Notes: a model not told the origin generated them from the sequence alone. A DNA stretch of 64,000 nucleotides from an uncultured Candidatus Saccharibacteria bacterium (GCA_964610055.1 CAZSUC010000001.1:588977-652976); one strand, 5' to 3'. Positions 5,675-41,676 are shown, numbered from the stretch's first letter. Made by a program: numbers and translations.

Positions 5675-6470
5675 CATGAAAAAATATTACGACCGACAAC
5701 ACCACCGACTGGTTTATCTACATACTCAGGCCAACTCTTCATTTTGGGATAACCAGTGGCAATCCCCCCGTCTTAAAGAAAAAATTCTAGCTGACAGTCG
5801 TAATCCTTTCTATGTACACATCACTCGACGTTATCTACCAGTCATAAATCCCGCCCCTAAAATTTTAGAAGGTGGCTGCGGGCAAGGAGCAGTCGTACTC
5901 AGCCTCCTCCAAGCCGGATATAAATCTGAAGGAATAGACTTTGCTCATAAAACTATCACCAAAGTAAACCAAATTTTCCCTAACCTGCCCCTTCAAACCG
6001 GCGACGTCACAAAACTACCTTATTCCTCCAACTACTTTGACGGTTACTGGTCATTAGGAGTAATTGAGCACGATTACAATGGATTTACTGCCCTAATTCA
6101 CGAAGCCCACCGCGTTCTCAAATCAAATGGATACCTTTTTCTCACTTTCCCCTACATGTCATTTACCCGAAAAACTAAAGCCGCTTTAGGCTTGTACCCC
6201 GACTGGCACGCCTCATCAACCAACCTCAGTAATTTTTACCAATTTGCCTTAGACCACCTGCAAACTTTAAACGAAATTACAAAATTTGGTTTTGTAGTTA
6301 AAGCAGGGAATCCAATCGATGGATATAAAGGCTTCCAGGAAGAAATACCCATCTCCCAACCCCTGATCAAATTAATTAAACGGCTCCCGCGTCCGCTGCC
6401 GTACGCCCTCTCTACCCTCCTCACGCCAGTTAGCGGACATATTTACCTTGCCGTCTTTCAAAAACAATAA
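5661..6470 (+). CDS. Class I SAM-dependent methyltransferase (Methyltransf_11-like)
   Basis: ILEGGCGQGAVVLSLLQAGYKSEGIDF...LPYSSNYFDGYWSLGVIEH. The start may instead be the ATG at 5676 (MKKYY...), which would avoid overlap with the upstream gene. Confidence 0.7.
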   Translation: MSLPDMKKYYDRQHHRLVYLHTQANSSFWDNQWQSPRLKEKILADSRNPFYVHITRRYLPVINPAPKILEGGCGQGAVVLSLLQAGYKSEGIDFAHKTITKVNQIFPNLPLQTGDVTKLPYSSNYFDGYWSLGVIEHDYNGFTALIHEAHRVLKSNGYLFLTFPYMSFTRKTKAALGLYPDWHASSTNLSNFYQFALDHLQTLNEITKFGFVVKAGNPIDGYKGFQEEIPISQPLIKLIKRLPRPLPYALSTLLTPVSGHIYLAVFQKQ

Positions 6471-7493
6471 TTACTTCTTAGAAACAATAGTCTTCCCCAT
6501 ACTCTTTTCCGTATCTAATTTGCCATAACGAACATGAAAATTATCTGCAATATAGCCTAAAACGTCTTTGCGTTCTTGTACGCCTTGGATTGTATCGAGC
6601 CCCGCTCCCTCGCCCAAAATGTAATCAAATACCAAAATACCATTATCTTCTAACGCCTCATGCATTCGTTTAACTGTATCCAGCGGCCTATTCAAATGTT
6701 CAAACACAGTCATACAATAAATCACTTCTACTTTTCCTTCTGTTTTTAACTGGAATTCATCCGCCGGATCTAATACCAGCGGAAACACATTCTGATTACA
6801 TCCCAACTTATACGCTCCAAAATGAAATGCTAGCGTCGCAATATCACTAATAAATATTAACCCTTGTCTGCTTTTAGGCCAAAATTCCAACAACGTGGTA
6901 GTAATTGGAGCAGTCCCGCACCCGAATTCTAAACTCTTAGCTGGCCAACGCGGCGCTACTTGTCCCATCAAATTTAATAATGCTAATTCATTAGCACGCG
7001 ACTCCTTGTAAACCAAGTGTAGCAACTGGTACAAAACTTCTGGCTGCTGCCAAGCGCTTAAATGCTGCTCCGCCCCCGCCGCTCCCGGTACGTTGCTTTG
7101 TTGAAACTTCAATCGATACCAACTACGCAAAAAGTATAAATCCTCTGGCCCCCACAACGGTCTTCCTCCCAACACCTGGGACCAGTAGCGCTGAAAGACT
7201 TCAAACCAAGACTGATCCAATCCAGTTCTCCGCCACCAATGCCACGCATAATTCCTAGCTCTTAACGGCAACCAGCTAGTTCTATACACTTTATGAAATG
7301 GGTCTTTCAACCAATCATCAGATACATCTTCTCGATTTTCCGGCGGATATTGCGCGTATAGCTCAGATACATTCACTTGCATATTTCCATACCCATCCTT
7401 ATCTAAATCTATATTCTCATTACTCAACATCTGATATATTGTGCACGAGATGACCATACCTGCCAATAGCAAACCAATTAGATTTTTTCCCAT
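6471..7493 (-). CDS. Membrane-anchored class I SAM-dependent methyltransferase
   Basis: C-terminal LEFGCGTAPITTTLLEF...VIYCMTVFEHL...GILVF is a methyltransferase fold. The chosen start MGKNLIGLLLAGMVISCTIYQ gives an N-terminal transmembrane anchor. The ORF-track start at 7571 would overlap the divergent gene even more. Confidence 0.6.
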   Translation of the reverse strand: MGKNLIGLLLAGMVISCTIYQMLSNENIDLDKDGYGNMQVNVSELYAQYPPENREDVSDDWLKDPFHKVYRTSWLPLRARNYAWHWWRRTGLDQSWFEVFQRYWSQVLGGRPLWGPEDLYFLRSWYRLKFQQSNVPGAAGAEQHLSAWQQPEVLYQLLHLVYKESRANELALLNLMGQVAPRWPAKSLEFGCGTAPITTTLLEFWPKSRQGLIFISDIATLAFHFGAYKLGCNQNVFPLVLDPADEFQLKTEGKVEVIYCMTVFEHLNRPLDTVKRMHEALEDNGILVFDYILGEGAGLDTIQGVQERKDVLGYIADNFHVRYGKLDTEKSMGKTIVSKK

Positions 7494-9490: not shown

Positions 9491-10374
9491 GCTGCTGCTG
9501 CTCCGTTCTGTATGTGTTGCGCAAAGTATTTTAGATTGTTTTTCGATATTTCCTTGCGCAGATTCTCATTTTTCAGGACAGGTAAGAGCTGTTTAGCTTT
9601 CTCCTTATACTCACTGCATAATTTTAAAAACTCAGCAGATGACAAATTATTATCCATTGGTCCGCTTAAACCTAAGCTCATATAGTGCACTTTCTCCCGT
9701 ACCGGAACGGGCCAATATGAAGTCGGCGGATAATCAGCTATCACTGCTCCTCCAATACTCATATAGTCAACCATTTTGAAACTTAGACAATCATGCTTCC
9801 CCCTGTTAAGAACATTCCAACGTGCCTGGCGGTTCCATTCTAACCATTTTTGATACGGCACATTATCTTTCCAAACTTCCACCCCGGCTTCTTGTAATAG
9901 CGCCCCCCACCGCTCATGGTCATCTGAACTCACCATCCTAGCCGCCAGTTTCATTTTAAAAGGCAAAGACGCTAACGCCAAAAACATCGCCACCTTATGA
10001 GGACGCCCCCCTGAAATACCAGCCAGCCAAACAATATCATACACCCTACGTTCCTCAGGAAGCGGGAAATTATGCTTTGTTAATGTCGTGCCGTTTAAAG
10101 ACGACACAACATTAACAGGATACAACCTCCCCGGATCATAATTAGCCTTAAAGTAAACCCCGTACTGCGTCGGATCATAGGCTAAGTCCTTACTATCTGT
10201 CACATCAATCAAATACGGTAAACCGTTGACTTCAAAATAAAAACAAGCCGGAGGACTACTTTTACGCAGATGTGGATATAGCTTAATTTTTCCCTGTCGC
10301 GCCAATTGCCAAAACTGCCGCATCCAAAAGCGGCTATACCAATGCGGATTAATTGCTATCGTGACTTTATCCAT
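9436..10374 (-). CDS. Hypothetical protein, distal gene of the nonulosonic-acid operon
   Basis: 312-aa ORF in tight operon spacing after the NeuB/PseI gene. I recognise no motif. It overlaps the convergent GT4 gene by 55 nt. Confidence 0.5.
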   Translation of the reverse strand: MDKVTIAINPHWYSRFWMRQFWQLARQGKIKLYPHLRKSSPPACFYFEVNGLPYLIDVTDSKDLAYDPTQYGVYFKANYDPGRLYPVNVVSSLNGTTLTKHNFPLPEERRVYDIVWLAGISGGRPHKVAMFLALASLPFKMKLAARMVSSDDHERWGALLQEAGVEVWKDNVPYQKWLEWNRQARWNVLNRGKHDCLSFKMVDYMSIGGAVIADYPPTSYWPVPVREKVHYMSLGLSGPMDNNLSSAEFLKLCSEYKEKAKQLLPVLKNENLRKEISKNNLKYFAQHIQNGAAAAYILGKIREMIPETMVVK

Positions 10375-10380
10375 ATAAAG

Positions 10381-11436
10381 CTATTCGTCTTTAATCATGT
10401 CCCAACTTAAAGGCTGTCCTTTTTTTAAAGTATACTTTGCTTTCCTACCTAGAACATCAGACCAATATTTCGGATGCATCCCAAATCCTGGCCGAATTGA
10501 CCGAATATTTGATTCGGTAAGACTCTCTCCTTCATTCACATCCTCTGTCACAAACAAGGAACGAGAGTGTTCCCGACTTTTCTTAGCCCTATTAGTCAAC
10601 ACAAAAGACCTTGTCCCCAAAGATTTTTCAATATTTCGAACTGCTTGCGACATCGCCTTAAATTCTTTCGGATCCAAAGAGAACATAGCATCTGGGCCAC
10701 CCAGATCCTTATCTAAAATAAAATGCTTCTCTATTATTTTTGCTCCCAACGCTGTTGCCGCCACTGGCATCTCAATTCCTAATGTATGATCAGACAAACC
10801 AACCACAGTCTGGTAGATCGCTTCTATTTCTGGCATTCCTCTTAAGTTTACCTCTTCTAAAGGAGTTGGATATGCGGATGTACATTTTAATAAAGCTATT
10901 TCATTATTACCCGCTTCTTTTATGGTTTGTACCGCTAAATCAATATCTTCTTTCATAGCCACGCCAGTTGATAATATTACTGGCTTATTCTTCTGTGCTA
11001 TATATCTAATTAACGGAATATCAGTAATTTCAAAAGAAGCAACTTTATAAGCCGGTACATCCATCTTTTCTAAAAAATCAACTGCCGTTTTATCAAACGG
11101 ACTAGAAAAACATACCAACCCCACGCTCTCTGCTACCTCTTTCAGTTTTGGCTGCCAATCCCACGGCGTATACGCCTTTTCATATAACTTATATAAGGTT
11201 GTACCATCCCATATGGTTCCTTGGTTAATTTGGAAATATTCGTTATCACAGTCTATCGTGATGGTATCAGGTGTATACGTTTGTAACTTGATCGCATCCG
11301 CCCCAGCATCTTTTGCTGCTTTTATAGTTGCTACTGCAACGTCAAAATCCTGATTATGATTTGCTGACAGCTCAGCAATAATAAAAACTGGACATTCTGT
11401 CCCAATCTTACGTTTAGCAATATTCATGACTGCCAT
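10381..11436 (-). CDS. NeuB-family nonulosonic acid synthase (pseudaminic/legionaminic/N-acetylneuraminic acid synthase, PseI-like)
   Basis: CPVFIIAELSANHNQDFDVAVATIKAAKDAGADAIKLQTY...KCTSAYPTP...GLSDHT is the NeuB TIM-barrel signature. A C-terminal SAF domain is present. Confidence 0.85.
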   Translation of the reverse strand: MAVMNIAKRKIGTECPVFIIAELSANHNQDFDVAVATIKAAKDAGADAIKLQTYTPDTITIDCDNEYFQINQGTIWDGTTLYKLYEKAYTPWDWQPKLKEVAESVGLVCFSSPFDKTAVDFLEKMDVPAYKVASFEITDIPLIRYIAQKNKPVILSTGVAMKEDIDLAVQTIKEAGNNEIALLKCTSAYPTPLEEVNLRGMPEIEAIYQTVVGLSDHTLGIEMPVAATALGAKIIEKHFILDKDLGGPDAMFSLDPKEFKAMSQAVRNIEKSLGTRSFVLTNRAKKSREHSRSLFVTEDVNEGESLTESNIRSIRPGFGMHPKYWSDVLGRKAKYTLKKGQPLSWDMIKDE

Positions 11437-31659: not shown

Positions 31660-33930
31660 ATGTCGCCTTTTTCTCGTCCTTACTTTGCCTTATTAATTGT
31701 TAGCGCTTTAGCGCTCTGGCCGCTTTTTTTCGGCCGTTTTTACGGTATTGGCGATACACGCTCCGTTTATATTCCCATCGAGCATTTTTTTGCTGAGCAA
31801 CAACGGCACTTTAATTTACCGGCCTGGATGCCAGACACTGCTTGGGGTTTTCCGGTAATTGCTTCTGCTCAAATCGGTTTCTTTTATCCGCCTCTTTTAC
31901 TGACACGCTTCTTACCTATCTTTATTTACCTGCCGTTATTACTCTGGCTCCACATCTTTTTTCTCGGTATCGGCGCCTATCGTTTGGCCCGAACCCTAAA
32001 TATTAGTCAAAACGGCGCCCTGATTACCGCCCTATCCATTGCTCTTAACGCCTTTCTTTGGCAGCACTTAACCCACCTAAACATTATTTTTGCTTTGGCT
32101 TGGTTTCCTTGGCAATTACTCGCCGCTCATTACTTAGCCAGATCACATCGACCTAATTTCAAACAATTTGCCGGCTTAGTTTTCACTTTAGGCCTCCCGT
32201 TTTTAGCTGGCCAACTTCAAGTTCCTTTTCTCACCGCTCTTTTCTCTACCATTTATTATTTCGTTTCTTTACCCAAAAAGCCTTTCCCCTCTCGACATCT
32301 CCTCATTTTCCTCGGCGCAACTCTTTTGACTATTACTCTCACCGCCGTCCAAACATTTCCCACCCTAGAGCTCACATTCCTTTCCAGCCGTGGATCAACT
32401 AATGAATTTTCTTTGGAACGAGCTAATCAACATAGTTTTCCTATTTATCATCTACCCACCTTACTTTTTCCACGCTTTTTCGGCTCAGATAATACTTATT
32501 GGGGGAAACGTATTGAAATAGAATACGGCTTTTTCTTCGGCGTCATTCCGCTATGCCTCAGCTTTATTGCTATATTCAACAAATCACGTCGTTACCGTTT
32601 CTGGATTATCAGCGGCTTCATAGCTTTTCTGTTAAGCCTGGGCGAATTTTCTCCTTTTCGCTTAGTTGGCTTAGAGCCATCGCTCTGGTACTTTTCTGCT
32701 CCCGCCCGTTGGCTATTCTTCACCGTTTTTTCTGGATCAATCCTTGCTGGTTTTGGTTATGATCTTTTGCCTAATATCTCACCTCGTTACCTGCGCATCC
32801 TTAAATCAACTATTGTAACCATATTAAGCTGCGTCATTTTATATAATCTCGTCCTTTGGCTCTTGCCGGAAAATTTTGCTTCTTATGTTCTAACCTGGTT
32901 GCAATCACAAAATCTCACCGGCGCTCGCGATTCAGCCTATTATTTAGATAAGATTAATTCCTTACTCTCCTCTGCAAAACACACGGGCTTATCACTTGCT
33001 TCGCCATATACTTACATCACTCTCATTCCTTTGCTCGCCATTCCATGGCTCTTCCAAAAACATCACTCGTGGCTTATTCCTCTCACAGCTATTGAACTCA
33101 TCTTAATTGCCAGTACGGCCAATCCAAGTGTTACTTGGTCCAATATTCTAACTCCTCCTGCCAGCATCTCTGCCCTTCCTCAAAGTGTTACCAGCGATCA
33201 CGCTCGCATCATTTCAATCTCAGCTCCCGGCGATACAGGGCTTTGGCTAACTAACCCTGAAACCCGTGCCGATACCGCTCGTCGCGAACAATATCGTCAA
33301 CAACTCGAACCACTCACTCACTCACTTTTTAATCTTGCCGGTTCTCAATGGCCCGCCTCGCTGGATCTACAATCTCAGGCACATACTTTAGAAAATTTAC
33401 TCGAATCACGCCAAGATCAACTATACATTGATTCTGACAAAGCCGCTGCTCTCAATATCGGTGCTGCCTTAATTGCCAACGAAGCTCCCCACACTGTTTC
33501 AGAAGTACTACCCCAAAATATTGCACCGAATATCTTCTTGTATTCCTTCTCTCCTCAACCTCGCGCTTCTCTTTTAACTGAAGACCAAACCGAATTAGCG
33601 CTTCCATACGACAACACTAATCCTAATCACCAAACTTATACCCTCTCATCATCTACTCCCGCGACCCTTATTATTCGCGACACCTGGTACCCTGGTTGGC
33701 AAGCCACACTTGACGACCAACCCGTTAACATTGATACCTATAACAATATTTTCCGTTCTGTTTCGGTTCCCTCCGGATCACATACCGTTTCTTTCACCTA
33801 TCATCCTACTTGGCTTTATTACGGTCTAGCTATTTCGCTTACCACTCTTGGTTTTCTAATATTTGTGCTGATGTACAATAATCATATCTACACTGTTCCC
33901 TTTATTTTAAGGAGGAAGACCATTGGCTGA
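31660..33930 (+). CDS. YfhO-family membrane protein
   Basis: 756 aa. The N-terminal region is paralogous to 23569-26346 (GIGDTRSVYIPIEHFFAEQQ...NLPAWMPDTAWGFPVIA versus LDDLKLFYYPIETIYAEFQ...HLPLWSNVFGFGHPLLA). Confidence 0.7.
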   Translation: MSPFSRPYFALLIVSALALWPLFFGRFYGIGDTRSVYIPIEHFFAEQQRHFNLPAWMPDTAWGFPVIASAQIGFFYPPLLLTRFLPIFIYLPLLLWLHIFFLGIGAYRLARTLNISQNGALITALSIALNAFLWQHLTHLNIIFALAWFPWQLLAAHYLARSHRPNFKQFAGLVFTLGLPFLAGQLQVPFLTALFSTIYYFVSLPKKPFPSRHLLIFLGATLLTITLTAVQTFPTLELTFLSSRGSTNEFSLERANQHSFPIYHLPTLLFPRFFGSDNTYWGKRIEIEYGFFFGVIPLCLSFIAIFNKSRRYRFWIISGFIAFLLSLGEFSPFRLVGLEPSLWYFSAPARWLFFTVFSGSILAGFGYDLLPNISPRYLRILKSTIVTILSCVILYNLVLWLLPENFASYVLTWLQSQNLTGARDSAYYLDKINSLLSSAKHTGLSLASPYTYITLIPLLAIPWLFQKHHSWLIPLTAIELILIASTANPSVTWSNILTPPASISALPQSVTSDHARIISISAPGDTGLWLTNPETRADTARREQYRQQLEPLTHSLFNLAGSQWPASLDLQSQAHTLENLLESRQDQLYIDSDKAAALNIGAALIANEAPHTVSEVLPQNIAPNIFLYSFSPQPRASLLTEDQTELALPYDNTNPNHQTYTLSSSTPATLIIRDTWYPGWQATLDDQPVNIDTYNNIFRSVSVPSGSHTVSFTYHPTWLYYGLAISLTTLGFLIFVLMYNNHIYTVPFILRRKTIG

Positions 33931-34126
33931 TGACAAAGACCAAGACGAACGAAACCGACGACTTACAGAAGCCCTTGCGCCGTTAGGGCGAGGCGAGCTT
34001 CCTGACGGTACACCCATTGACCTAGCCGCCATCTCTGAACGTGCAAATCGGAAAGCCTGGATTTTTGCGCGCCGGCTTAGAGATAGCGCAGTACGTGACA
34101 ACCGCCGATACAAGGGTCAACACTAG
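33923..34126 (+). CDS. Small basic hypothetical protein, TTG start (paralog 1)
   Basis: TTG at 33923 lies 8 nt after AGGAGG. The 67-aa product shares ERNR(R/Q)LT.AL.PL...DL.AI... and a C-terminal YKG with the ORF at 34285. A strong intrinsic terminator follows. Confidence 0.55.
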   Translation: MADDKDQDERNRRLTEALAPLGRGELPDGTPIDLAAISERANRKAWIFARRLRDSAVRDNRRYKGQH

Positions 34127-34141
34127 CCCACCTCCTTACGT

Positions 34142-34169
34142 CCCGTGCCACATCGGCACGGGCTTTTTT
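34142..34169 (+). terminator. Rho-independent terminator after small paralog 1
   Basis: CCCGTGCC-ACATC-GGCACGGG 8-bp GC-rich stem followed by C+TTTTTT. Confidence 0.75.
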
Positions 34170-34284
34170 ACAATTTATTCCGTCCCAGTCTCTCATACCG
34201 GTATAAAATTTCTACTTTTGTAGATCGATATAGTATATTAACTTTATCTTTTGTTCCCTTCACTTTTAGTAGGAGGATAAACCG

Positions 34285-34476
34285 TTGGATAATGAAAACG
34301 AACGAAACCGACAACTTACCGTGGCTCTCAATCCATTAAGGACAGGTCTATCATTATCTGACCTCTCCGCAATCGCTGACCATGCCACAGACGACGCCAT
34401 GTCGCATGCCAAAGCAGTTCGTTCAGGAACAGCAAGGACCAGAGCTAAACACAGGTTAGGCCCATACAAAGGCTGA
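34285..34476 (+). CDS. Small basic hypothetical protein, TTG start (paralog 2)
   Basis: Same SD and TTG context as 33923 (AGGAGGATAAACCGTTGGAT). 63 aa, with protein-level similarity to paralog 1. Confidence 0.55.
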   Translation: MDNENERNRQLTVALNPLRTGLSLSDLSAIADHATDDAMSHAKAVRSGTARTRAKHRLGPYKG

Positions 34477-34509
34477 CCTTTGCGCACCATCACAGTCAGG
34501 AGAATTTTC

Positions 34510-34788
34510 ATGGCAGCAGAAACTTATCATTTCATCCTTTTAGGAAGCCCTCTCTCACGAACAGACTTCCTTAATCCGCTTAAAAGGCGGATACAATTCG
34601 ACATGGGCAAGACAGCTCTCGCTCAAGTCCCAGGCATACGTTTCGGTACCGAATTTCCTATTGCTTGCGCCGTAACCATCACCTGCCCGCGAGAATCACT
34701 GCCAGAACTCCACCGGATCATGACTGAACACAGTTTTCAAGAAGGTAGCCAGGAGATTTCAATCAAAACAGCCAGAGAAATCGCCTAA
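34510..34788 (+). CDS. Hypothetical protein
   Basis: 92-aa ORF from an ATG with an AGGAGA SD 7 nt upstream. Followed by a hairpin plus T-run. Confidence 0.45.
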   Translation: MAAETYHFILLGSPLSRTDFLNPLKRRIQFDMGKTALAQVPGIRFGTEFPIACAVTITCPRESLPELHRIMTEHSFQEGSQEISIKTAREIA

Positions 34789-34814
34789 CACACCTCCTCC
34801 TTCATCATCCTACT

Positions 34815-34841
34815 CCACCAAGCCAGTCTTGGTGGATTTTT
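34815..34841 (+). terminator. Rho-independent terminator between the convergent 34510 (+) and 34840 (-) genes
   Basis: CCACCAAG-CCAGT-CTTGGTGG 8-bp stem followed by ATTTTT. Confidence 0.65.
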
Positions 34842-36135
34842 ATATCCACATCCTATCAATCAATTCTCGCGGTTGTCCGTACCGTAATCGATTTACCGCC
34901 TGCACCTCTACCTTCCCTATAGCCGTTTCTAAACTTAACGGCGGCAAACTCTGCCCCCGAAATGCTCGGTACGTAATTCCGGCCTGAGTCAGACGGATAA
35001 AAAAGTGATATGGCGGCAAGTCCTGAAAATCCTCCACTTGAATCGCCTGCCCCTTATCCCACGATGTTTGCTGAAAGGCCGGCAGTAACGCTTCCGCATC
35101 ATTTGCCCCTATTTGAAAAGCCACCAACGTTCCTACATTACCCAACACCGCCTCTCGCACCTCGTCAGTTAATTGCGCCACATACTGATTAGTTAAATGC
35201 ACAGCTAATCCGTACTTGCGCGCTTCCGACAACATAGAAATGAATGTTTCCGTCATCACATTCTGAAATTCATCGACGTATAAATAAAAGGGAACCCTGT
35301 CTTCGACCGGCATATCGGCACGACGCATTATCGCCGCCTGTAACTTTGCCATCAAAATCAATCCCAACATATATGAATTTAATTCTCCCAGTCTTCCTTT
35401 AGACAAATTCACAATCAAAATTTTGCCATGATTCACAATCTCATCAAACGCCAAAGCATTGCGCTTCTGACCGATGATATTGCGCATCGTCGTATTTGTC
35501 ATAAAGCGACCAAACTTGGAAGTAAAATAATTCAACATTTCCGAGCGATGAAACTGCGCGGTTTTTGCCATCTGCTCTTCCCAAAATGACAATACGACCC
35601 GATCTCGCACATGGCGACGTTTTTCTTGCTCAAATTTTTCATCCGTAAATAAGCGCGGAATCTCAATCAAAGTTCCGCCCGCCGGATCGGCCATAACTGT
35701 TAAAGCCGCATTTCGCATCCAGTGTTCAAACTGCGGCCCAATAATTCCCTGCTGATCCGGATCAAATAGTTTATAAAATATCTGAATCGCCTCGGCCACC
35801 AAAAAATCTTTCTCACTTTCAGTTTTACCATCCAATAAGTTCAAGCCTAATGGCCATTCCGTATCAGCCGGATCAAACAACACTACATCATCCAACCGCT
35901 CCGCCGGAATATTATTTAACAGCCAATCGCACACTTCTCCATGCGGATCAACAAAACAACACCCCGCCCCAGCCTGAATATCCTGCAAAATCATATTTTG
36001 ATACAAAGTCGATTTACCCGTCCCAGTTTTTCCAATGCAATACATATGTCGCATCCGATCTTGCGGTGCTGTTTGAATACTGCGCATTTGATTGCGAAAT
36101 TCAGCGTGTCCAATTACATTCATTCTTTCTGTCAT
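34840..36135 (-). CDS. Soluble VirD4/TraD/TraG-like P-loop ATPase (FtsK-HerA superfamily, type IV coupling-protein-like)
   Basis: Walker A CIGKTGTGKST, downstream FVDPHGE (DPxGE motif) and Walker B FYLYVDEFQNV. No N-terminal TM segment. Terminal gene of a 4-gene minus-strand operon. Confidence 0.65.
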   Translation of the reverse strand: MTERMNVIGHAEFRNQMRSIQTAPQDRMRHMYCIGKTGTGKSTLYQNMILQDIQAGAGCCFVDPHGEVCDWLLNNIPAERLDDVVLFDPADTEWPLGLNLLDGKTESEKDFLVAEAIQIFYKLFDPDQQGIIGPQFEHWMRNAALTVMADPAGGTLIEIPRLFTDEKFEQEKRRHVRDRVVLSFWEEQMAKTAQFHRSEMLNYFTSKFGRFMTNTTMRNIIGQKRNALAFDEIVNHGKILIVNLSKGRLGELNSYMLGLILMAKLQAAIMRRADMPVEDRVPFYLYVDEFQNVMTETFISMLSEARKYGLAVHLTNQYVAQLTDEVREAVLGNVGTLVAFQIGANDAEALLPAFQQTSWDKGQAIQVEDFQDLPPYHFFIRLTQAGITYRAFRGQSLPPLSLETAIGKVEVQAVNRLRYGQPRELIDRMWI

Positions 36136-36136
36136 T

Positions 36137-36361
36137 TCAGCTCCTTTCTACCATTGTAAAATAATTAGCCGGAATAGGACGTGGCGGCAATCCCGGTCGC
36201 ATCACCATAACTACTTTTGTTTCCACCTTAGCTTCAGACGTAATCTTCACTGTCCGCCGCCATGCTTCCAAACGGTTTTTAATTACTCTCTGCGTTTCTA
36301 TTGGCAGCCAATGCTTAATTCGCTCATACTCCTCTTCTACTTTGTGTAATTTTGCTATCAT
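36137..36361 (-). CDS. Small hypothetical protein, translationally coupled
   Basis: Start taken at the ATG in an ATGA overlap with the Clp-like gene stop (MIAKLHKVEEEYERIK...). 74 aa. Its stop is 1 nt before the downstream ATG. Confidence 0.45.
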   Translation of the reverse strand: MIAKLHKVEEEYERIKHWLPIETQRVIKNRLEAWRRTVKITSEAKVETKVVMVMRPGLPPRPIPANYFTMVERS

Positions 36362-38043
36362 ATTGTTTCTTTCATCATCCATTGCCCGATCGCTGATTCC
36401 GCCGTTTGTTCTAGCCATCTTTTCAACGGCCTAACCCCGAACCGCGGATCATATTTCTGCTCAATGTGTTGTCTAATCATATTATCCGACATCGACAAAT
36501 TAACTCCCAAATGACTGAATCGTCTTTCAATCTTCTGTAGTTCCAACCGTCCGATCATCACTAAAGTTTCCGGCGCAAACGGAGCAAAAACAGCAATTCC
36601 CTCAAACCGATTCAAAAACTCCCACCGAAAATATTTAGTCAGCAATGGCAACATCCGCCGACTTAACCATTCCGCACTTGTTACATCCTCTCCTGCCTGC
36701 CAATCAGTCACAATTTCACTTATCCCTATATTCGAAGTCGCCACAATCACGGTTTTCCGGAAATCGATTGTTCGTCCTTGCCCATCAGTTAAACGCCCAT
36801 CTTCTAACACTTGTAAAAAAATATCAAACACCGCTTTATCGGCTTTTTCAATTTCATCCAATAAAACTAACGAATATGGCCTTTGTTGTACTGGATTAGT
36901 TAATTGACCACCACTCTCATACCCAACATAACCAGGTGGCGCACCAATTAAACGCTGTACATTATGTGCTTCCTGGTATTCCGACATATCAACCCTTACC
37001 ATCGCCTTATCTCCGCCGTACAATTCTCGCGCCAACACACGCGCCACCTCTGTTTTACCGACTCCGGATGGACCTAAAAACAAAAATGAACCCAATGGTC
37101 GATCCGGATTCTTCAATCCTAACCATGACCTTTCGATTACTTTTGTTACCATATTTACTGCTTGATCCTGACCAATGACCTGCGCTGCTAATCTACCCCC
37201 CAACCCAGCAATGGCCTTCCTATCTCGCGTTTGAACTTTTATTGTCGACATCCCCAACTTATCACTCAAAACCCGCTGCGCATCTTCATATGCCACAATC
37301 CTCCGCCCCTGCACCACCGCCTCCGCTCCAATGTCATCTAAAAACCTAATTGCCCGTTCGGGCATCGCTAAGCTCGCTGGTAACTGACTCGCTAAATCAT
37401 AGATTGCTTCCGGCATATTAGCAGCCATCTTAATATTATGTTTGAATCCAAAATAAGCGGCGCGATCTCTTAAAATTTCCACCACATCTGCTTTTCCTAA
37501 TTCATCTAATCGAATCCATTCGAACTCACGTACATACTTCGGATAATTTTCCTTAAATTTTATTTCTCCTTCTAACGACAACGCTAACACTAATCTATGC
37601 CTCTGTTTCTGCCAAAACTTACTCCACACATCCGCCATCTGCGCTGTATTCATCACATACTCCAACAGCACCTCTGCCTTATCAATCACCAAAATACAGG
37701 CTGGTAGCGCTCCTAGTGCTTCTCCGTAAAGCCGTAATTTCGCGGCCGGATCATGCGCTCGATTCATTTTTTCCTGCCACCATTTCAAATCTAACTCCAG
37801 AATTGGTGTTTGAATTATCCCCTGCAAACTGCCTTTGACCGCCGCCTGCGCCAACCCTCTCAACAACGCTGTTTTGCCTACTCCTTCTCCTCCTGTCACC
37901 ACCACGTTATTCATTTGATCACGCTCAAATACTCGCGCCATCAAACTCAACTCTCGCTCCCGACCTCTCACTGGCCACTGACGAACTTGAGTAGCCTCTC
38001 GCACTAAATCAATTATATGTATTGTTTCTAATCGCTCAGGCAT
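36358..38043 (-). CDS. Clp/Hsp100-family double AAA+ ATPase (ClpB/ClpA-like, lacking N- and M-domains)
   Basis: D1 Walker A VVVTGGEGVGKTAL with a degenerate D1 Walker B (ILVIDKAE). D2 Walker A FLFLGPSGVGKTEVAR, Walker B LVLLDEIEKA, and sensor FLQVLEDGRLTDGQGRTIDFRKTVIVATSNIG, all characteristic of ClpB D2. Confidence 0.75.
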   Translation of the reverse strand: MPERLETIHIIDLVREATQVRQWPVRGRERELSLMARVFERDQMNNVVVTGGEGVGKTALLRGLAQAAVKGSLQGIIQTPILELDLKWWQEKMNRAHDPAAKLRLYGEALGALPACILVIDKAEVLLEYVMNTAQMADVWSKFWQKQRHRLVLALSLEGEIKFKENYPKYVREFEWIRLDELGKADVVEILRDRAAYFGFKHNIKMAANMPEAIYDLASQLPASLAMPERAIRFLDDIGAEAVVQGRRIVAYEDAQRVLSDKLGMSTIKVQTRDRKAIAGLGGRLAAQVIGQDQAVNMVTKVIERSWLGLKNPDRPLGSFLFLGPSGVGKTEVARVLARELYGGDKAMVRVDMSEYQEAHNVQRLIGAPPGYVGYESGGQLTNPVQQRPYSLVLLDEIEKADKAVFDIFLQVLEDGRLTDGQGRTIDFRKTVIVATSNIGISEIVTDWQAGEDVTSAEWLSRRMLPLLTKYFRWEFLNRFEGIAVFAPFAPETLVMIGRLELQKIERRFSHLGVNLSMSDNMIRQHIEQKYDPRFGVRPLKRWLEQTAESAIGQWMMKETI

Positions 38044-38044
38044 A

Positions 38045-39895
38045 TTAGACCATCATTGTCCGATTAACAGTTGTGCCACCCGTAATCTGACTGGATCTTA
38101 TCGTTCCTTCCTCTTCATCTTCTGTTCCTATAATTATCCCGCCACGATGACGCGCTTCTGCCGCTAACTCAATCTCTGTCCCTCTTTGCTTAATCTGACC
38201 AACATAATTATCTAAATCTACTCGCCAACCCGGCTTCTCTCTTTCATTTCTCCAATTTTCTCTTTCCGCCTCTGCTCTCCATTCATATCCAACCGGACCA
38301 TCTGTCACTTGCTCTAAACTATCCGGCTTCGTTTTCGCCTCATAAAAACGATACCTAACTGCATCCCCATCTCGCTCCACTACCGTTACATCCAACACTT
38401 CGCCTTTTACCGTACGCTCTCCCGAAAAATACTGCTGTTCTCTGTTTACTGCGCCTCTAATCACTTTTTCTAGCTCTCCTCGCTCTTCCACCGGCCACAA
38501 ATCCATCACACTCTTTTCTATTTGCTCCGGCATCAACGTTAAAGCGACTTTCTCTTCCATATCTAACTCAACATCAATACCCTGAATTTCCTCTCTTCTT
38601 ACCTCCGCCTTATAAACCGTTTCTACCTTCGGGTACTCTTTCTTTTCCCCAACCTTCACATCTACATTCACATCTACATCTATATTCTCTACATTATTTT
38701 CTCTTCCCTTTTCTAAAATCACTGGTCTTTCAGCTATTTTTTTCTCCTCCGTAATCGCAACTTCAACTCTTTCCTTAACTCTCGTAACGCTTTGCTCCGA
38801 TAAAACCTGGTCGGCTTTCACATCCACCGCTTTCGGCACTAGTCCCGGAAACATCTCCTGTAAACTCACTTCTACTTTCCTAGATTCATTTTTCTGTCCT
38901 AAATCAGTTTGCACTACTTCTGGCATTGAAGCAGCTTCTCTTTCCCCCGCATTTACATACTTTATCTCTATGGCTTCACTCGGCGTATTTTCTATCACCC
39001 GTACCTCTCCTGTCTTCGTCTCACCAGGTTCCTCTTGCTTTAACAACTCCTTACGCAACTCCTCATGATTCCAAACTTCTTCTAGCTGCGGCTCTTCAAC
39101 CTGCCTCTGCTCCACAAACACATCAGAATTAATCGTATTTTCAGATGCTTGTTCTTCTAGTTCTTCTCTTTGATCATCTACTTCCACTCTTTCACCAACC
39201 ATATCCATCGCATTTATATAATTTATCTCAATGCCTTCACTCGACGTATTTTCTATCACTTGCACCTCTTCTTCTCTCACCTCATTGCTTTGCTGTTCTT
39301 GTACCACTACCACTTCTTCTCTAACAAGCTCTTCACTTATCTCATCAACCATACTTTCTGCTTGCGCTTCAATCTCTACTTGTTCTACTTGCGCTTCATC
39401 TTCACTGCCTATCCACTCGTCGCTTTCTTCATTCAAATTAACCGGTACTTCACGAAATTGCACTAACATATATTCTGTTTCTCGTTCTCCCCACTCATTC
39501 ACTTCGTCTTTGACCACCACTGCACAACTTTTAAACTCATGATAAGCCACATATCCACTTTTCGCGCCACATAATGTTTCAAATTGCCCTTCTTCATCCA
39601 TTCCTTCACTACTAATCTCCTGATCATTCCAAAATACCCGTCTCTTACCAGTCGCGTCTTCCCTCACCACGCATTTATATGTCTGCGCCATTTCTAGTCT
39701 TTGCCCTGTCCCTTGCTCTAAATCAACTCGAGCTGATTCTAATCTCATTGTCATTCGCTCATGTTCTTCTGTCTGGCGTTCCTTTTCCGATGCTAATTCT
39801 TCTGCTTGAACCTGTACCTCAGATTCAATCTCTTCAACATCCAACATTTCCTCTAGGCTTTCTTCGGTTTCCGCTATGTTTATACTTTCAGGCAT
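38045..39895 (-). CDS. Highly acidic glutamate-rich protein with an internal sequence repeat (no recognisable domain)
   Basis: 616 aa from the ATG at 39895, which lies 9 nt after AGGAG. Low-complexity E/V/Q-rich sequence with duplicated segment QVIENTSSEGIEINYINA / RVIENTPSEAIEIKYVNA. Less acidic C-terminal 150 aa. The ORF-track start at 39925 would include the SD. Confidence 0.6.
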   Translation of the reverse strand: MPESINIAETEESLEEMLDVEEIESEVQVQAEELASEKERQTEEHERMTMRLESARVDLEQGTGQRLEMAQTYKCVVREDATGKRRVFWNDQEISSEGMDEEGQFETLCGAKSGYVAYHEFKSCAVVVKDEVNEWGERETEYMLVQFREVPVNLNEESDEWIGSEDEAQVEQVEIEAQAESMVDEISEELVREEVVVVQEQQSNEVREEEVQVIENTSSEGIEINYINAMDMVGERVEVDDQREELEEQASENTINSDVFVEQRQVEEPQLEEVWNHEELRKELLKQEEPGETKTGEVRVIENTPSEAIEIKYVNAGEREAASMPEVVQTDLGQKNESRKVEVSLQEMFPGLVPKAVDVKADQVLSEQSVTRVKERVEVAITEEKKIAERPVILEKGRENNVENIDVDVNVDVKVGEKKEYPKVETVYKAEVRREEIQGIDVELDMEEKVALTLMPEQIEKSVMDLWPVEERGELEKVIRGAVNREQQYFSGERTVKGEVLDVTVVERDGDAVRYRFYEAKTKPDSLEQVTDGPVGYEWRAEAERENWRNEREKPGWRVDLDNYVGQIKQRGTEIELAAEARHRGGIIIGTEDEEEGTIRSSQITGGTTVNRTMMV

Positions 39896-40167
39896 ACAAA
39901 AAACTCCTACATGCACAACACGCATGAGGAGAAATCACTAAAAATCCTTATGCGCGTAGGCTCAACAAAGGATTCAGGCACTCTGACTTATGGCTTTTAG
40001 CCCATCACAGTTGCGGCATACCAGCGCCGGATTCTCACCGGCTTTCCCTGATCACACTTTTCAGTGCGCGTGGTGCGAACCACGCCAATCCTCTTTAAAA
40101 ATTAATGTGCACTCTTAGCTTACCGCCGTTCCCTTGGCCCCACAATCAGTTTTTTGCACAGGCTCGT

Positions 40168-41676
40168 TTATTTAGCGTATATCCAAACATAAGGCACGTC
40201 GTGCACCTTTATAACCTCCACCGGCACGACATCTTTCATTGCCGCTAACGCCTGACTCGCCAAAGTGTCTTCTCCGCGACCACCCATGTTTCTATAGGTC
40301 ACAATATAATCAACATGTTCATTCTCCCGAGCCGCTAAACTAACTACCTCGCCCCTAAAATATGTTTGCAACACTTGCGGATACCAAGATGCAACCGTTA
40401 ATTGTTCCGCCTCTGTCTGCGCGTTTAACCAAGCTGCCGCCGCTTCTAACCCCTCACCCCATCCTTGCTGACTTAGTGGCCGTATCTCCGGTAATAAAGA
40501 ATTATTATACGCAATCAAATAACTATCTCGCCAATTAGCCCATGTCCAAACGGATAGAAATACCACCACGCCTATCGCAAACCCTTGCCATGTTTTTTTT
40601 CGTCTCGCCAAAGTTATCTTTGCCGTTACCCATCCCGTCAACACCGGCCCCACAACCAACGCTGGCAATGCATACCGATCCGCTTTTTTCGCCGCCCAAG
40701 TCATAATAACCAAAAAGCCAATCGCATAAACATACATCCAAACCATTTCTTGGCTGTGCTTTTGTTTCCGCACTATTACTATTAATGCTGCTACCCAGCC
40801 AAATAACACCAGCGGCGTACTCCGACCCAATGCGGTTCGCATATAAAAAGTCGCGGGCTGAATCGCATCCGTCCCAGCATCTAACTCAACATGCTCCCAA
40901 GTAACTGCTGTCCCAATATCACGCGTAAATGAACGACTCATATCTGCTTTCACCCACGCCGCTGGCCATGCCACCCAAAACACCAGTCCTGCTACTCCAA
41001 TCACCGTGCCCAAAGTTCGCAACATTATATTTATTTTTCCTGACTTGCCCCATAACTTCCACACCACCCACCCCATCATCATTGGCACTAGCCATAACGC
41101 TAAAATTAATTTCGTTGCCGCTGCTAGCCCAAACCAAATACCTGCTCCAACTAGCCAACGCCATTTTTGCTTTTGCCACCAGACCATCCACGCCAACCAA
41201 CTATTCAACATGAACAATGCCAATAATCCATCCAAATGCACAATCTGCGTCGCTCCTGCTAAATACGGATCTAACGCCAAAAATATTCCAGCTAACCAAC
41301 CGACTGGCGCCCCTCCTAAGATCGTCAACATAAATGCCGCTATCCCAATCATCCCAGCCGCCGCTAAACTCACGGGCAGAACAGCTGCCTTACGAAAATG
41401 TTGTAAATTACCTGGCTGAACTGTTACTCCTAAACGTGTTTCTTGCACCACTTCCCCTGCCCCTGCTAGCCACATTAAAGGCGCCCCCGGATGAGTTGTC
41501 ACAAATGTCGACGCTGGATCCATGGCTCGAATTGCCTGCCAATATTGAGCGCTGCGTAACATCCACGCCTCTTCATCCACTGTCATATATTGCCCTAACC
41601 CCGGCCACCGCGCCAATAACGCTAAAACTCCGATACTAACTGGTATTATTCCTGCTTTCGCTTTAATCCAATTCAC
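40168..41676 (-). CDS. GT-C glycosyltransferase, PMT_2/GT39-like (paralog of 29665-31620)
   Basis: MTVDEEAWMLRS...TTHPGAPLMWLAG and C-terminal LTVASWYPQVLQTYFRGEVVSLAARE...VTYRNMGGRGED align to the 29665 ORF. Confidence 0.65.
   Translation of the reverse strand: MNWIKAKAGIIPVSIGVLALLARWPGLGQYMTVDEEAWMLRSAQYWQAIRAMDPASTFVTTHPGAPLMWLAGAGEVVQETRLGVTVQPGNLQHFRKAAVLPVSLAAAGMIGIAAFMLTILGGAPVGWLAGIFLALDPYLAGATQIVHLDGLLALFMLNSWLAWMVWWQKQKWRWLVGAGIWFGLAAATKLILALWLVPMMMGWVVWKLWGKSGKINIMLRTLGTVIGVAGLVFWVAWPAAWVKADMSRSFTRDIGTAVTWEHVELDAGTDAIQPATFYMRTALGRSTPLVLFGWVAALIVIVRKQKHSQEMVWMYVYAIGFLVIMTWAAKKADRYALPALVVGPVLTGWVTAKITLARRKKTWQGFAIGVVVFLSVWTWANWRDSYLIAYNNSLLPEIRPLSQQGWGEGLEAAAAWLNAQTEAEQLTVASWYPQVLQTYFRGEVVSLAARENEHVDYIVTYRNMGGRGEDTLASQALAAMKDVVPVEVIKVHDVPYVWIYAK

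Follow-up and report, generated by a model that had tools for sequence, protein, structure and literature searches.

A conserved Patescibacteria operon encoding a Clp-like ATPase, a VirB4/VirD4-type ATPase and an acidic protein downstream of a predicted cobalamin riboswitch

A block of four translationally coupled genes

The window analyzed here, i.e., the whole 64,000-nucleotide stretch from an uncultured Candidatus Saccharibacteria bacterium (GCA_964610055.1 CAZSUC010000001.1:588977-652976), carries four minus-strand genes flanked on one side by a profile-confirmed YfhO gene of the GT-C type (31660-33930) and on the other by a gene for a PMT_2 GT-C protein, also confirmed. ORFs and flank profiles thus bear out the operon that a first-pass annotation had placed between two GT-C genes. 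The first gene encodes an acidic protein (38045-39925, 626 aa; 38045-39895, 616 aa when counted from the M11 ATG at 39895-39893, where gene callers place the start and which is served by an AGGAG Shine-Dalgarno site), followed by genes for a Clp-like ATPase (36358-38043, 561 aa), a small protein (36137-36361, 74 aa, or up to 36418, 93 aa) and a VirD4-like ATPase (34840-36135, 431 aa). As had been noted before, the junctions read from the sequence span only 0-1 nt: a 1-nt gap between the acidic and Clp-like genes (TAA-T-ATG), an ATGA overlap between the Clp-like and small-protein genes, and a 1-nt gap between the small-protein and ATPase genes (TGA-A-ATG). Together they form a translationally coupled, conserved block, and none of their products has a transmembrane (TM) segment. 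On the plus strand, two small genes (33923-34126 and 34285-34476) sit inside a ~355-nt DNA duplication, each preceded by an RBS-like site. Their earlier description as tandem paralogs holds (34% identity, E 5e-8), but they are missing from the 80 related loci and hence lie outside the conserved module.

The acidic protein proved to be as first described, glutamate-rich and internally repeated: Asp and Glu make up 25% of its residues (net charge -82, pI 4.4), and the repeat in its gene is real (69 nt, 84% identity, 261 nt apart). This polyanionic, largely low-complexity protein matched no Pfam, NCBIfam, PADLOC or PHROG family and is essentially an orphan in libraries of 5.8e9 and 1.8e9 proteins, with one marginal match covering residues 33-169. 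Acidic proteins of different loci could not be aligned to each other; nevertheless, 27 of the 29 relatives scored are classed as disordered by the Uversky plot, and a C-terminal tail motif recurs, G-I/V-T/S-L/M-x-x-A-A-COOH. An AA C-terminus was found in 17 of 32 proteins in the acidic position, compared to 4.8% of other ORFs, while the window protein ends in GGTTVNRTMMV, not AA. Genomes that have no Clp gene also encode acidic low-complexity proteins ahead of the ATPase, and 8 of 43 of these end in AA. The tail resembles the ssrA tag, which is read by ClpX and ClpA. Since the tail is ssrA-like, the acidic proteins are likely substrates to be threaded, and we regard the window protein as a putative client. 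Neither this tail nor the riboswitch in the leader had been noticed in the first-pass annotation.

Profile searches upheld the assignment of the second protein to the Clp-like family (Pfam AAA_2 7e-58, ClpB_D2-small 2e-9; ClpB/ClpC D2 structures in the PDB at 1e-96), yet its matches to the NCBIfam ClpB, ClpA and ClpV models all fell far below the cut-offs. We rejected a ClpB/Hsp104 disaggregase (TIGR03346, 391 bits vs. a cut-off of 1232), as the match lies mainly in D2 and is weak in D1, the protein has 561 aa vs. ~860, there is no Clp_N match, and D1 has a "DK" Walker B and no pore-loop motif. ClpA/ClpC (TIGR02639, 352 bits vs. 993; no Clp_N) and the T6SS protein ClpV/TssH (TIGR03345, 336 bits vs. 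885; no N-domain) were rejected likewise, and a Pfam scan of 10 flanking genes found no T6SS genes. By eye, no hydrophobic-Gly-hydrophobic tripeptide occurs between "TSNIG" and "FRWEFLNR", where we presume a ClpP-docking IGF/IGL/VGF loop would lie. Aligning 34 orthologues showed Walker A, Walker B, the GYVG pore loop and the GARP sensor to be preserved in D2, whereas D1 retains GxxGxGKT, has "VIDKAE" instead of DE and is without the KYRG pore-loop motif. To judge from these motifs, the protein appears to be a Clp/Hsp100-type double-ring AAA+ ATPase with a degenerate D1 and a fully catalytic D2. It shares the two-tier architecture of ClpB, ClpA/ClpC and ClpV but differs in lacking both the N-domain of ClpA/B/C/V and the coiled-coil M-domain of ClpB, as well as the Walker B glutamate and pore-loop tyrosine of D1.

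The small protein has no family in any library searched. However, an ORF of 68-141 aa occupies its position in 35/35 other loci, including L083, whose source annotation omits it. These small proteins have in common a region predicted to be helical and, at the C-terminus, a "YF(E/V)QK" motif (NYFTMVE in the window), and the 74-aa protein is a putative adaptor.

A predicted cobalamin riboswitch in the operon leader

The 245-nt leader directly upstream of the acidic gene (39926-40170) holds a predicted cobalamin-clan riboswitch aptamer (39941-40105, minus strand). A search of 501 nt matched the full Rfam RF00174 model at 39957-40105 with 27.4 bits (E 3.7e-5), which falls below the gathering score of 31.5. 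We also built a leave-out covariance model, R2, from which the window and its closest relatives were excluded; it matched 39941-40073 with 56.9 bits (E 2.7e-14), its sole match in the 64 kb. Upstream of the same operon, a riboswitch is statistically supported in 29 of 31 related loci with upstream DNA. The Rfam gathering score was passed in 14 related loci (32-67 bits), and our own covariance models added 14 further loci at E<1e-9, the leave-out window match among these. All matches lie on the operon strand, and each either ends within ~100 nt upstream of the called acidic-ORF start or overlaps an over-extended ORF call. Conversely, no convincing riboswitch was found at 44 loci without the Clp gene, the sole match being marginal (L073, 24.5 bits, E 0.007). 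Across 20 operon leaders, RNAalifold found compensatory double changes in 9 of 12 predicted pairs, an example being ACNGU/AGUCNG (U:A 12, G:C 4, C:G 4); the core expected of such an aptamer is GGGAA / GGUG..AAUCC / GCCGCAACUGU / B12-box AGUCAG. The covariation supports the secondary structure of a cobalamin riboswitch (clan CL00101) for the leader RNA, which is a predicted B12-class aptamer.

A putative expression platform (39895-39956, minus strand) comprises a terminator-like hairpin (AAUCCUU...AAGGAUU plus a U-run) and then a second hairpin that hides the AGGAG Shine-Dalgarno just before the M11 ATG. In the window, this platform is suggested by the sequence and by a minimum-free-energy fold only weakly better than shuffles (z only -1.7). 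Strong terminators (z -3 to -4) were found in three relatives (L027, L055 and L009), in which the terminator 5' arm CUCGGG can pair with the aptamer 3' UCCCGAG. This terminator/antiterminator complementarity suggests an OFF switch, so the operon would be made when cobalamin is scarce.

The same riboswitch also leads operons of a second type. At four metagenomic loci it is followed by genes for proteins of 590-671 aa and 130-190 aa and for a membrane-anchored, full-length relative of the ATPase (45-51% identity). Most often (27 of 72 loci), the subclass precedes one small-protein family, of which the member tested carries DUF4430, which we take to be a B12-binding domain. In leader position and riboswitch clan (RF00174, RF01482, RF01689), the operon resembles known cobalamin-riboswitch regulons (btuB/btuFCD/ECF-CbrT, DUF4430 binders, cob/cbi, metE, nrd). 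In contrast, none of its four proteins belongs to a known family of B12 transport, biosynthesis or isozymes, and profile searches found no resemblance to a B12 binder, a transporter or a B12-independent isozyme. The riboswitch is the strongest functional clue of the locus.

Conservation of the operon and affinities of its ATPase

The arrangement recurs in relatives. The small ORF and the ATPase gene lie directly 3' of the Clp-like gene in 35/35 other Clp-carrying Patescibacteria loci. A large ORF ends at the Clp-like gene in 31/31 loci with DNA upstream and is acidic (pI 4.0-5.2) in 29 of these, the exceptions being L029 and L034. Such a four-gene arrangement is far beyond chance, and the operon is conserved in one large Patescibacteria branch (Parcubacteria/Paceibacteria, Doudnabacteria and Kaiserbacteria-type genomes). 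Between Patescibacteria lineages the ATPase is ~57-70% identical, a range consistent with vertical inheritance as a core gene.

The first-pass annotation had read the block as a possible secretion, defense or mobile-element module inserted into a glycosylation locus. Insertion is not supported: the neighbors of the cassette differ completely in every related genome, the flanks being unrelated, varied and housekeeping. Moreover, tetranucleotide deviation stays within +-1.7 sd of the window, i.e., normal composition, and neither flanking direct repeats nor an integrase or tRNA were found at the cassette. We therefore rejected the island reading; the four genes are a conserved operon of ultra-small CPR/Patescibacteria bacteria. 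As for anti-phage defense or a mobile element, we did obtain weak PADLOC matches (mad8 4e-16 for the ATPase; PDC-M37B 8e-40 and DolB for the D2 domain), a match to phrog_5156 at 5.5e-48, and a soluble relative, 40% identical, on a phage-like IMG/VR contig. However, the PADLOC matches (mad8, PDC-M37B, DolB, HerA P-loop) are to single domains, cover generic P-loop/AAA_2 regions and come with no partner genes, and the cassette itself is highly identical between relatives. We also know of no metabolite-riboswitch control in known defense islands. This explanation is largely refuted and seems to us very improbable.

The family of the ATPase needed some qualification. Its earlier description as VirD4-like is supported by profile matches (TrwB_AAD_bind 1e-7, TraG-D_C 2e-6, DUF87 2.5e-5) and by GKTGTGKST, DPHGE and VDEFQ, which fall in invariant columns of the family alignment, and it has the FtsK-HerA-superfamily nucleotide-binding domain expected of a type IV coupling protein (T4CP). 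The N-terminal TM domain of T4CPs is absent, the protein having no hydrophobic segment: its model opens with beta strands at residue 6, with Walker A at residue 35. The closest structures were DptH, VirB4, TrwB and HerA, with the VirB4 C-terminal domain and DptH as close as TrwB. The protein is thus a soluble P-loop ATPase of the VirB4/VirD4(T4CP)/HerA clade, for which "VirD4-like" is only partly right. No T4SS (VirB4) or relaxase partner came to light, there being no second VirB4/T4CP-like P-loop protein in the 64 kb or the +-8 kb flanks of relatives. From complexes of TrwB, VirD4 or DotL with their adaptors the operon ATPase differs in having no N-terminal TM domain and no T4SS, relaxase or known adaptors nearby, in its much stronger conservation and riboswitch control, and in having a Clp unfoldase as its partner. 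At 44 Berkelbacteria-type loci, the orthologue of this ATPase domain occurs as a fusion with one N-terminal TM helix and a ~350-aa domain. Tn-seq in S. epibionticum found SEML1_0142, one of the two such proteins there, to be essential, along with the small gene preceding it (PMC10633639); synteny suggests that SEML1_0142 is orthologous to the window ATPase gene.

Could the ATPase be a conventional T4CP that receives substrates for the Patescibacteria MPF-FATA-like T4SS? In that case the host would be sent the acidic protein as a secreted effector, with the Clp-like ATPase as its unfoldase and B12 as a mere cue for host contact or starvation. This would agree with the T4CP Pfam domains and with T4SSs being widespread and essential in Saccharibacteria; T4SS substrates have C-terminal signals and must be unfolded, and Legionella DotL-DotM recognizes Glu-rich signals. 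We consider it unlikely, since the ATPase has no TM domain, the window has no VirB4-like gene, TrwB is no closer to it in structure than VirB4 and DptH are, and ~60% identity across lineages is atypical of T4CPs. Also against it, a survey of Patescibacteria places only 148 of 5,713 T4CP homologues near virB4, with VirD4-profile homologues in 2,918 of 3,035 genomes vs. VirB4 in 2,417, and suggests that the orphan homologues were exapted for other functions (Quinonero-Coronel et al. 2025, PMC12102498). The operon ATPase belongs to the same family and corresponds to this published, unexplained "orphan T4CP". The accessible text of that study contains none of the words "Clp," "AAA" and "acidic," says nothing of a riboswitch and draws no distinction between soluble and TM-anchored forms, whereas the Clp-like partner and the riboswitch are described, and the two forms separated, here.

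Proposed function

We tentatively propose that the operon encodes a B12-repressed protein-handling/translocation module expressed under cobalamin limitation, with relief of that limitation as its output. Scarcity of cobalamin would relieve the OFF switch and the operon would be made. The giant polyanionic, largely disordered protein would be the client, its ssrA-like C-terminal tail being engaged by the Clp-like hexamer, although the reader of the tail could instead be the ATPase, another Clp or neither. Because motifs are conserved in D2 and degenerate in D1, only the D2 ring would be a competent motor, with D1 as a nucleotide-binding scaffold. The polypeptide would be threaded or remodeled, and the small YF-motif protein would help pass it on to the hexameric VirB4/VirD4-type ATPase, which is probably a coupling/translocation motor at the membrane; its orthologue is membrane-anchored in other Patescibacteria. 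With no TM segment in the four proteins and no channel or VirB4 gene within 64 kb, translocation has no visible conduit.

A different possibility is that a B12-dependent step is bypassed through DNA handling, with the ATPase as a DNA translocase. B12 starvation would stall the AdoCbl-dependent ribonucleotide reductase, and foreign DNA would be imported or processed to provide deoxynucleotides; proteins would be stripped by the Clp-like ATPase, and the polyanionic protein would mimic DNA or act as a regulator. B12-independent alternatives such as metE and nrd genes are classic targets of repression by B12 riboswitches, the closest structures of the ATPase (DptH, VirB4, TrwB, HerA) are DNA-handling/T4SS motors, and in two close relatives its gene overlaps xseA-xseB (exonuclease VII). 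T4SS-type DNA uptake has also been proposed as a nucleotide source for Patescibacteria (review, PMC11665869). However, the xseAB linkage is confined to those two loci, the cassette has no conserved nuclease, DNA-binding domain or channel, and the Clp unfoldase and conserved C-terminal peptide tail point to protein, not DNA, as the substrate, all of which makes this account doubtful.

For the protein-handling module that we favor, the nearest parallels are partial. Type VII secretion combines an EccC FtsK-like ATPase, an EccA AAA+ protein and small helical substrates, and Plasmodium PTEX combines HSP101 with acidic PTEX150; in both, the accessory proteins are non-homologous to those of the cassette, which has no membrane components and, compared to type VII secretion, no multi-domain EccC or WXG100 protein. 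Our literature search turned up no earlier account of the operon or its control by B12. A Clp-type unfoldase together with an ATPase of VirB4/VirD4 type and a giant, acidic, disordered protein is a combination seen in no described system (T4SS, T6SS, T7SS or PADLOC defense systems); the first-pass annotation, too, could not assign it to a T4SS, a T6SS or a known defense system. Its output would most probably be relief of B12 limitation, with cobalamin acquired or extracted from the host or environment, or with a B12-dependent step substituted, for which the main candidate would be deoxynucleotide supply when the AdoCbl-dependent ribonucleotide reductase is idle.

The operon and its four proteins

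The ORF map and the junction sequences bear out four co-directional genes on the minus strand. The first encodes an acidic protein (38045-39925; a 626-aa ORF, or 616 aa from M11, the ATG at 39895, which follows an AGGAG ribosome-binding site and which gene callers chose as start), followed by a Clp-like ATPase (36358-38043, 561 aa), a small protein (36137-36361, 74 aa, in an ORF that reaches 36418 and 93 aa) and a VirD4-like P-loop ATPase (34840-36135, 431 aa), hereafter the window ATPase. Read from the sequence, the junctions are those originally described: TAA-T-ATG, an ATGA overlap and TGA-A-ATG. Neither ATPase has a second copy within the 64-kb window.

The first-pass annotation had placed the two ATPases in the Clp and VirD4 families, and profile searches upheld both calls, the Clp-like protein matching AAA_2 (7e-58) and ClpB_D2-small and the window ATPase matching TrwB_AAD_bind (1.4e-7), TraG-D_C (1.7e-6) and DUF87 (2.5e-5). 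In structure comparison, the window ATPase scored 29.2 against both the DptH C-domain and the VirB4 C-terminal domain, 25.7 against TrwB, 24.0 against HerA, 23.2 against DotL and 15-17 against EccC domains. It has no TM segment, and it lacks the membrane anchor and the T4SS linkage of a type IV coupling protein (T4CP); "VirD4-like" stands as the name of a fold family and not as membership of the T4CPs. The Clp-like protein starts where D1 starts in ClpA/ClpB, with the N-domain and M-domain both absent. Its D2 keeps Walker A and B, the GYVG pore loop and the GARP sensor and hence a competent ring; in D1 the P-loop is kept, "VIDK" replaces the Walker B DE and the KYRG pore-loop motif is absent, and from these motifs D2 is probably the sole working motor. 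The protein scores far under all NCBIfam Clp equivalog cut-offs and is a distinct Clp/Hsp100 subfamily. As had been proposed, no described system accommodates the operon, whose proteins fell outside the T4SS coupling proteins, ClpB, ClpA/ClpC, ClpV and the PADLOC systems.

The acidic protein has a net charge of -82, a pI of 4.4 and 25% D+E, and the internal repeat ascribed to it is a true one (69-nt copies, 261 nt apart, 84% identity). By sequence it is nearly orphan: BLAST and phmmer detected no homology to 30 positional counterparts, and a word-indexed search of 5.8e9 proteins together with an exhaustive phmmer search of 1.8e9 representatives returned the protein itself and one marginal N-terminal match.

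On the opposite strand beside the operon, the two small paralogs reported earlier are real. These plus-strand ORFs, within 33894-34836, encode 67 and 63 aa (34% identical, E 5e-8) and sit in a ~355-nt tandem duplication, each behind an AGGAGG-like site. A strong plus-strand terminator (34142-34162) lies 3' of the first; the second is followed by a 102-aa plus-strand ORF (34480-34788) and a further plus-strand terminator (34814-34836). Gene callers instead report an overlapping 81-aa ORF on the minus strand (34266-34511). Pfam, NCBIfam, PADLOC and PHROGs contain no family for the paralogs, and 80 related loci contain no counterpart. GC skew was strongly negative in every 1-kb bin of the window (1-64000; -0.1 to -0.5), with no turning point seen in the 64 kb; since plus-strand YfhO (31660-33930) is included, the bias is strand-wide and not simply that of the coding strand.

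Conservation of the cassette in Patescibacteria

The window derives from a Patescibacteria (CPR) genome, and its ATPase has more than 5,000 relatives, those with names being Portnoy-, Doudna-, Colwell-, Pace- and Parcubacteria. Using the ATPase alignment, we fetched 80 species-level loci from GTDB genomes and called and compared their ORFs. Class A, the loci with a Clp-like gene (33 from GTDB, together with L083 and L084, the closest relatives), has the order large acidic protein, Clp-like ATPase (~552 aa, 32-40% identical), small ORF (68-141 aa) and soluble ATPase (~425 aa, 53-69% identical). In every Clp-bearing locus, the Clp gene is followed directly by the small ORF and the ATPase gene, and the large upstream ORF is present in every class-A locus with enough upstream DNA and is acidic (pI 4.0-5.2) in 29 of 31. 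The small proteins form a family that is conserved and carries the C-terminal motif YF(E/V)QK.

Because homology searches found almost nothing for the acidic protein of the window, we compared it with its counterparts by position, composition and tail. The counterparts are alike in position and in their polyanionic, disorder-type composition, and a subset shares an N-terminal domain of ~100 aa. A jackhmmer profile of this domain joins 16 counterparts and does not reach the window protein, and profile comparison of the domain with proteins next to riboswitches at other loci (X, c2, c4 and c5) gave nothing significant. The counterparts share a conserved C-terminal tail, G-I/V-T/S-L/M-x-x-A-A-COOH, with AA at the C-terminus in 17 of 32 compared with 4.8% of other long ORFs; the window protein ends in a divergent version (...GGTTVNRTMMV). 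This tail is similar to the ssrA tag, which is read by Clp unfoldases, and mainly for that reason we treat the acidic protein as a candidate threaded client.

The operon had first been viewed as an insertion in a glycosylation locus and a possible mobile element or defense module. Its neighbors in the window are indeed glycosylation genes (YfhO, four PMT_2 GT-C proteins, GT4, GT2 and an epimerase). Mapping of gene neighborhoods, however, showed that the cassette is conserved among class-A loci and its surroundings are not: each genome has its own, unrelated flanks, among them exonuclease VII, FtsEX, response regulators and genes of the pentose-phosphate pathway, and the glycosylation context is therefore incidental. 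In tetranucleotide usage the operon stays within ±1.7 sd of the window. Flanking repeats, tRNAs and integrases were looked for and not found, and scanning the window with Rfam at gathering score, as a further island test, was also negative. Matches in PADLOC and PHROG were to generic domains only. The island, mobile-element and defense readings are thus unsupported.

Class B comprises 44 loci of Berkelbacteria type that have no Clp gene. Here, the orthologous ATPase domain (49-56% identical) forms the C-terminal half of a protein of ~830 aa, which in addition carries a single N-terminal TM helix and a domain of ~350 aa for which Pfam has no family; hhalign gave probabilities below 1% for this domain against the Clp-like and small proteins, and equivalence to either was rejected. 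Usually, a second full-length paralogue (35-42% identity to the window ATPase) is encoded 3', either next to this gene or one to three genes further on, and an acidic or Pro-rich low-complexity protein is often encoded 5' of the ATPase gene. The 824-position family phrog_5156, of obscure function, matches the window ATPase (5.5e-48) at profile positions 387-797 and so has the class-B architecture.

Several further arrangements were seen. A soluble 432-aa relative of the ATPase (40% identity) is encoded at 5932-7230 of the phage-like contig L085 (IMGVR_UViG_3300015370_000561), which also carries a holin, an M23 peptidase, a PLD nuclease and a PD-(D/E)XK nuclease. In two close relatives, L083 (9281-10631) and the P0002 contig, the 5' end of xseA lies within the ATPase gene and xseB comes next (exonuclease VII), which suggests co-transcription with an ssDNA exonuclease in those genomes only. 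Just 5' of the acidic-protein/ATPase pair in Berkelbacteria-type loci, an ORF of ~370-430 aa recurs (L041 3917-5032, L056 5139-6281, L074 5396-6502 and L079 5104-6390), which from its N-terminal sequence looks like tgt (queuine tRNA-ribosyltransferase). Queuosine synthesis includes a B12-dependent step (QueG).

Cobalamin riboswitches upstream of the ATPase operons

Core motifs of a cobalamin riboswitch can be read by eye in the 245-nt leader 5' of the acidic-protein ORF, and Rfam at an E-value threshold gave a full-length RF00174 match at 39957-40105 on the minus strand (27.4 bits, E 3.7e-5), under the family's gathering score of 31.5. In relatives, the element likewise lies 5' of the acidic gene on the same strand, and 14 loci exceed the Rfam gathering scores for Cobalamin, AdoCbl or AdoCbl-II (32-67 bits). 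A first covariance model, made from 20 leaders, found 24 strong matches, all in class-A leaders, and only one marginal match in the 44 class-B loci (L073; 24.5 bits, E 0.007). A second model, built with the window and its nearest relatives left out, matched the window at 39941-40073 on the minus strand (56.9 bits, E 2.7e-14), its sole match in the 64 kb, and also matched the related loci L002, L083, L084, L024, L027, L034 and L038. Altogether, the riboswitch has statistical support in 29 of 31 class-A loci with upstream DNA; L016 has an AdoCbl-II-like core by eye and no statistical match, and L029 has no riboswitch within its 316 nt of upstream DNA. Compensatory changes occur in 9 of 12 predicted base pairs. 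The operon is a conserved, translationally coupled unit behind a B12-class aptamer.

In three class-A leaders (L027, L055 and L009), a strong intrinsic terminator (z -3 to -4) sits directly 5' of the start codon, and its 5' arm is complementary to the aptamer's 3' UCCCGAG. Such complementarity is the usual OFF-switch layout. Before M11 in the window, a terminator-like hairpin and a Shine-Dalgarno-sequestering hairpin can be drawn with weak statistics. Given the layout in these three relatives and the weak window statistics, we infer the polarity of the switch.

A second link to B12 came from metagenome contigs scanned for the operon's riboswitch subclass, where 80 loci were examined and 72 had a callable downstream ORF. 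The commonest gene 3' of the riboswitch (27/72) encodes one family of small proteins; an inspected member starts with an N-terminal hydrophobic anchor, and the member scanned with Pfam contains DUF4430, a B12-binding domain. In four loci (L106, L121, L139 and L157), the riboswitch is followed by a 590-671-aa protein, a 130-190-aa low-complexity protein and a full-length ATPase of class-B type (45-51% identical to the window ATPase), so that riboswitch and ATPase are associated in two operon architectures. Among these metagenome loci (L088-L167), several cytoplasmic protein families (~200-670 aa, one a cluster of 12) also lie directly 3' of cobalamin riboswitches; members scanned had no Pfam family, and these families are unexplained members of the B12 regulon.

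Taken together, we are highly confident that the operon is a vertically inherited Patescibacteria module under B12-riboswitch control, and not an island or a defense system.

A putative B12-linked machine and the orphan T4CPs

Around the highly conserved VirB4/VirD4-type ATPase, a working scheme can be drawn. The operon would be expressed under B12 limitation; the tail of the acidic protein would be engaged by the Clp-like hexamer and its chain threaded; the small protein may couple the two ATPases; and the VirB4/VirD4-type hexamer, judging from its membrane-anchored orthologues, would be the coupling or translocation motor. The output could be either acquisition of cobalamin or bypass of a B12-dependent step. 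None of the operon proteins resembles a known B12 binder, and the cassette encodes no channel. We put forward the client-threading relay and its B12-limitation purpose tentatively, as somewhat more apt to fail than to hold. We come closer to an even judgment, still on the doubtful side, on the broader proposal of an undescribed Patescibacteria machine built on the VirB4/VirD4-type hexameric ATPase and wired directly to cobalamin status, to which one large branch adds a Clp-type unfoldase dedicated to it and a disordered polyanionic protein tagged by the tail; it would either give these auxotrophic epibionts a new way of obtaining B12, or a B12-dependent product, from hosts or be a host-sensing, B12-gated secretion device. 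All parts of the system belong to known superfamilies; the operon matches no known category of cobalamin-regulon genes, and we rate the system, in its putative function, as outside known kinds.

In a 2025 census, VirD4-profile "T4CP" homologues occur in 2,918 of 3,035 Patescibacteria genomes (5,713 copies), only 148 of them near virB4, and exaptation is noted as possible (PMC12102498). The words "Clp", "AAA" and "acidic" are absent from that paper. Tn-seq tables for S. epibionticum (Saccharibacteria) list two class-B-type proteins, of which SEML1_0142 is essential, as is the small gene before it, and SEML1_0293 is dispensable and adjoins a Sigma70_r4/HARE-HTH gene, SEML1_0294, which is itself essential (PMC10633639 supplement). 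The second paralogue of the class-B locus L033 likewise adjoins such a gene, which lies directly 5' of it (9983-11011), and this suggests that the Sigma70_r4 + HARE-HTH protein is a dedicated regulator of the second paralogue. Gene order would place the window ATPase nearer to SEML1_0142, the essential protein, than to SEML1_0293. In open-access text, we found nothing relevant that pairs Patescibacteria/CPR with cobalamin riboswitches or T4CP with Clp, and no description of the operon, its riboswitch control or the tail motif.

Patescibacteria/CPR, which account for much of bacterial diversity, draw resources from hosts by largely obscure means. The literature has noted the VirD4-like ATPases that nearly all of them carry and has never explained them, and a direct regulatory link to B12 makes this orphan-ATPase problem experimentally testable. 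The link also adds a wholly unexpected class of genes to the cobalamin regulon and provides a natural ligand-controlled switch for a phylum in which inducible genetic tools are sought (PMC11665869), and the tail shared by otherwise unalignable proteins is a handle for finding the machine's client set. If the proposed machine is real, it would explain the near-universal "orphan T4CPs" of Patescibacteria and, provided the synteny-based orthology also holds, the essentiality of one T4CP in Saccharibacteria.
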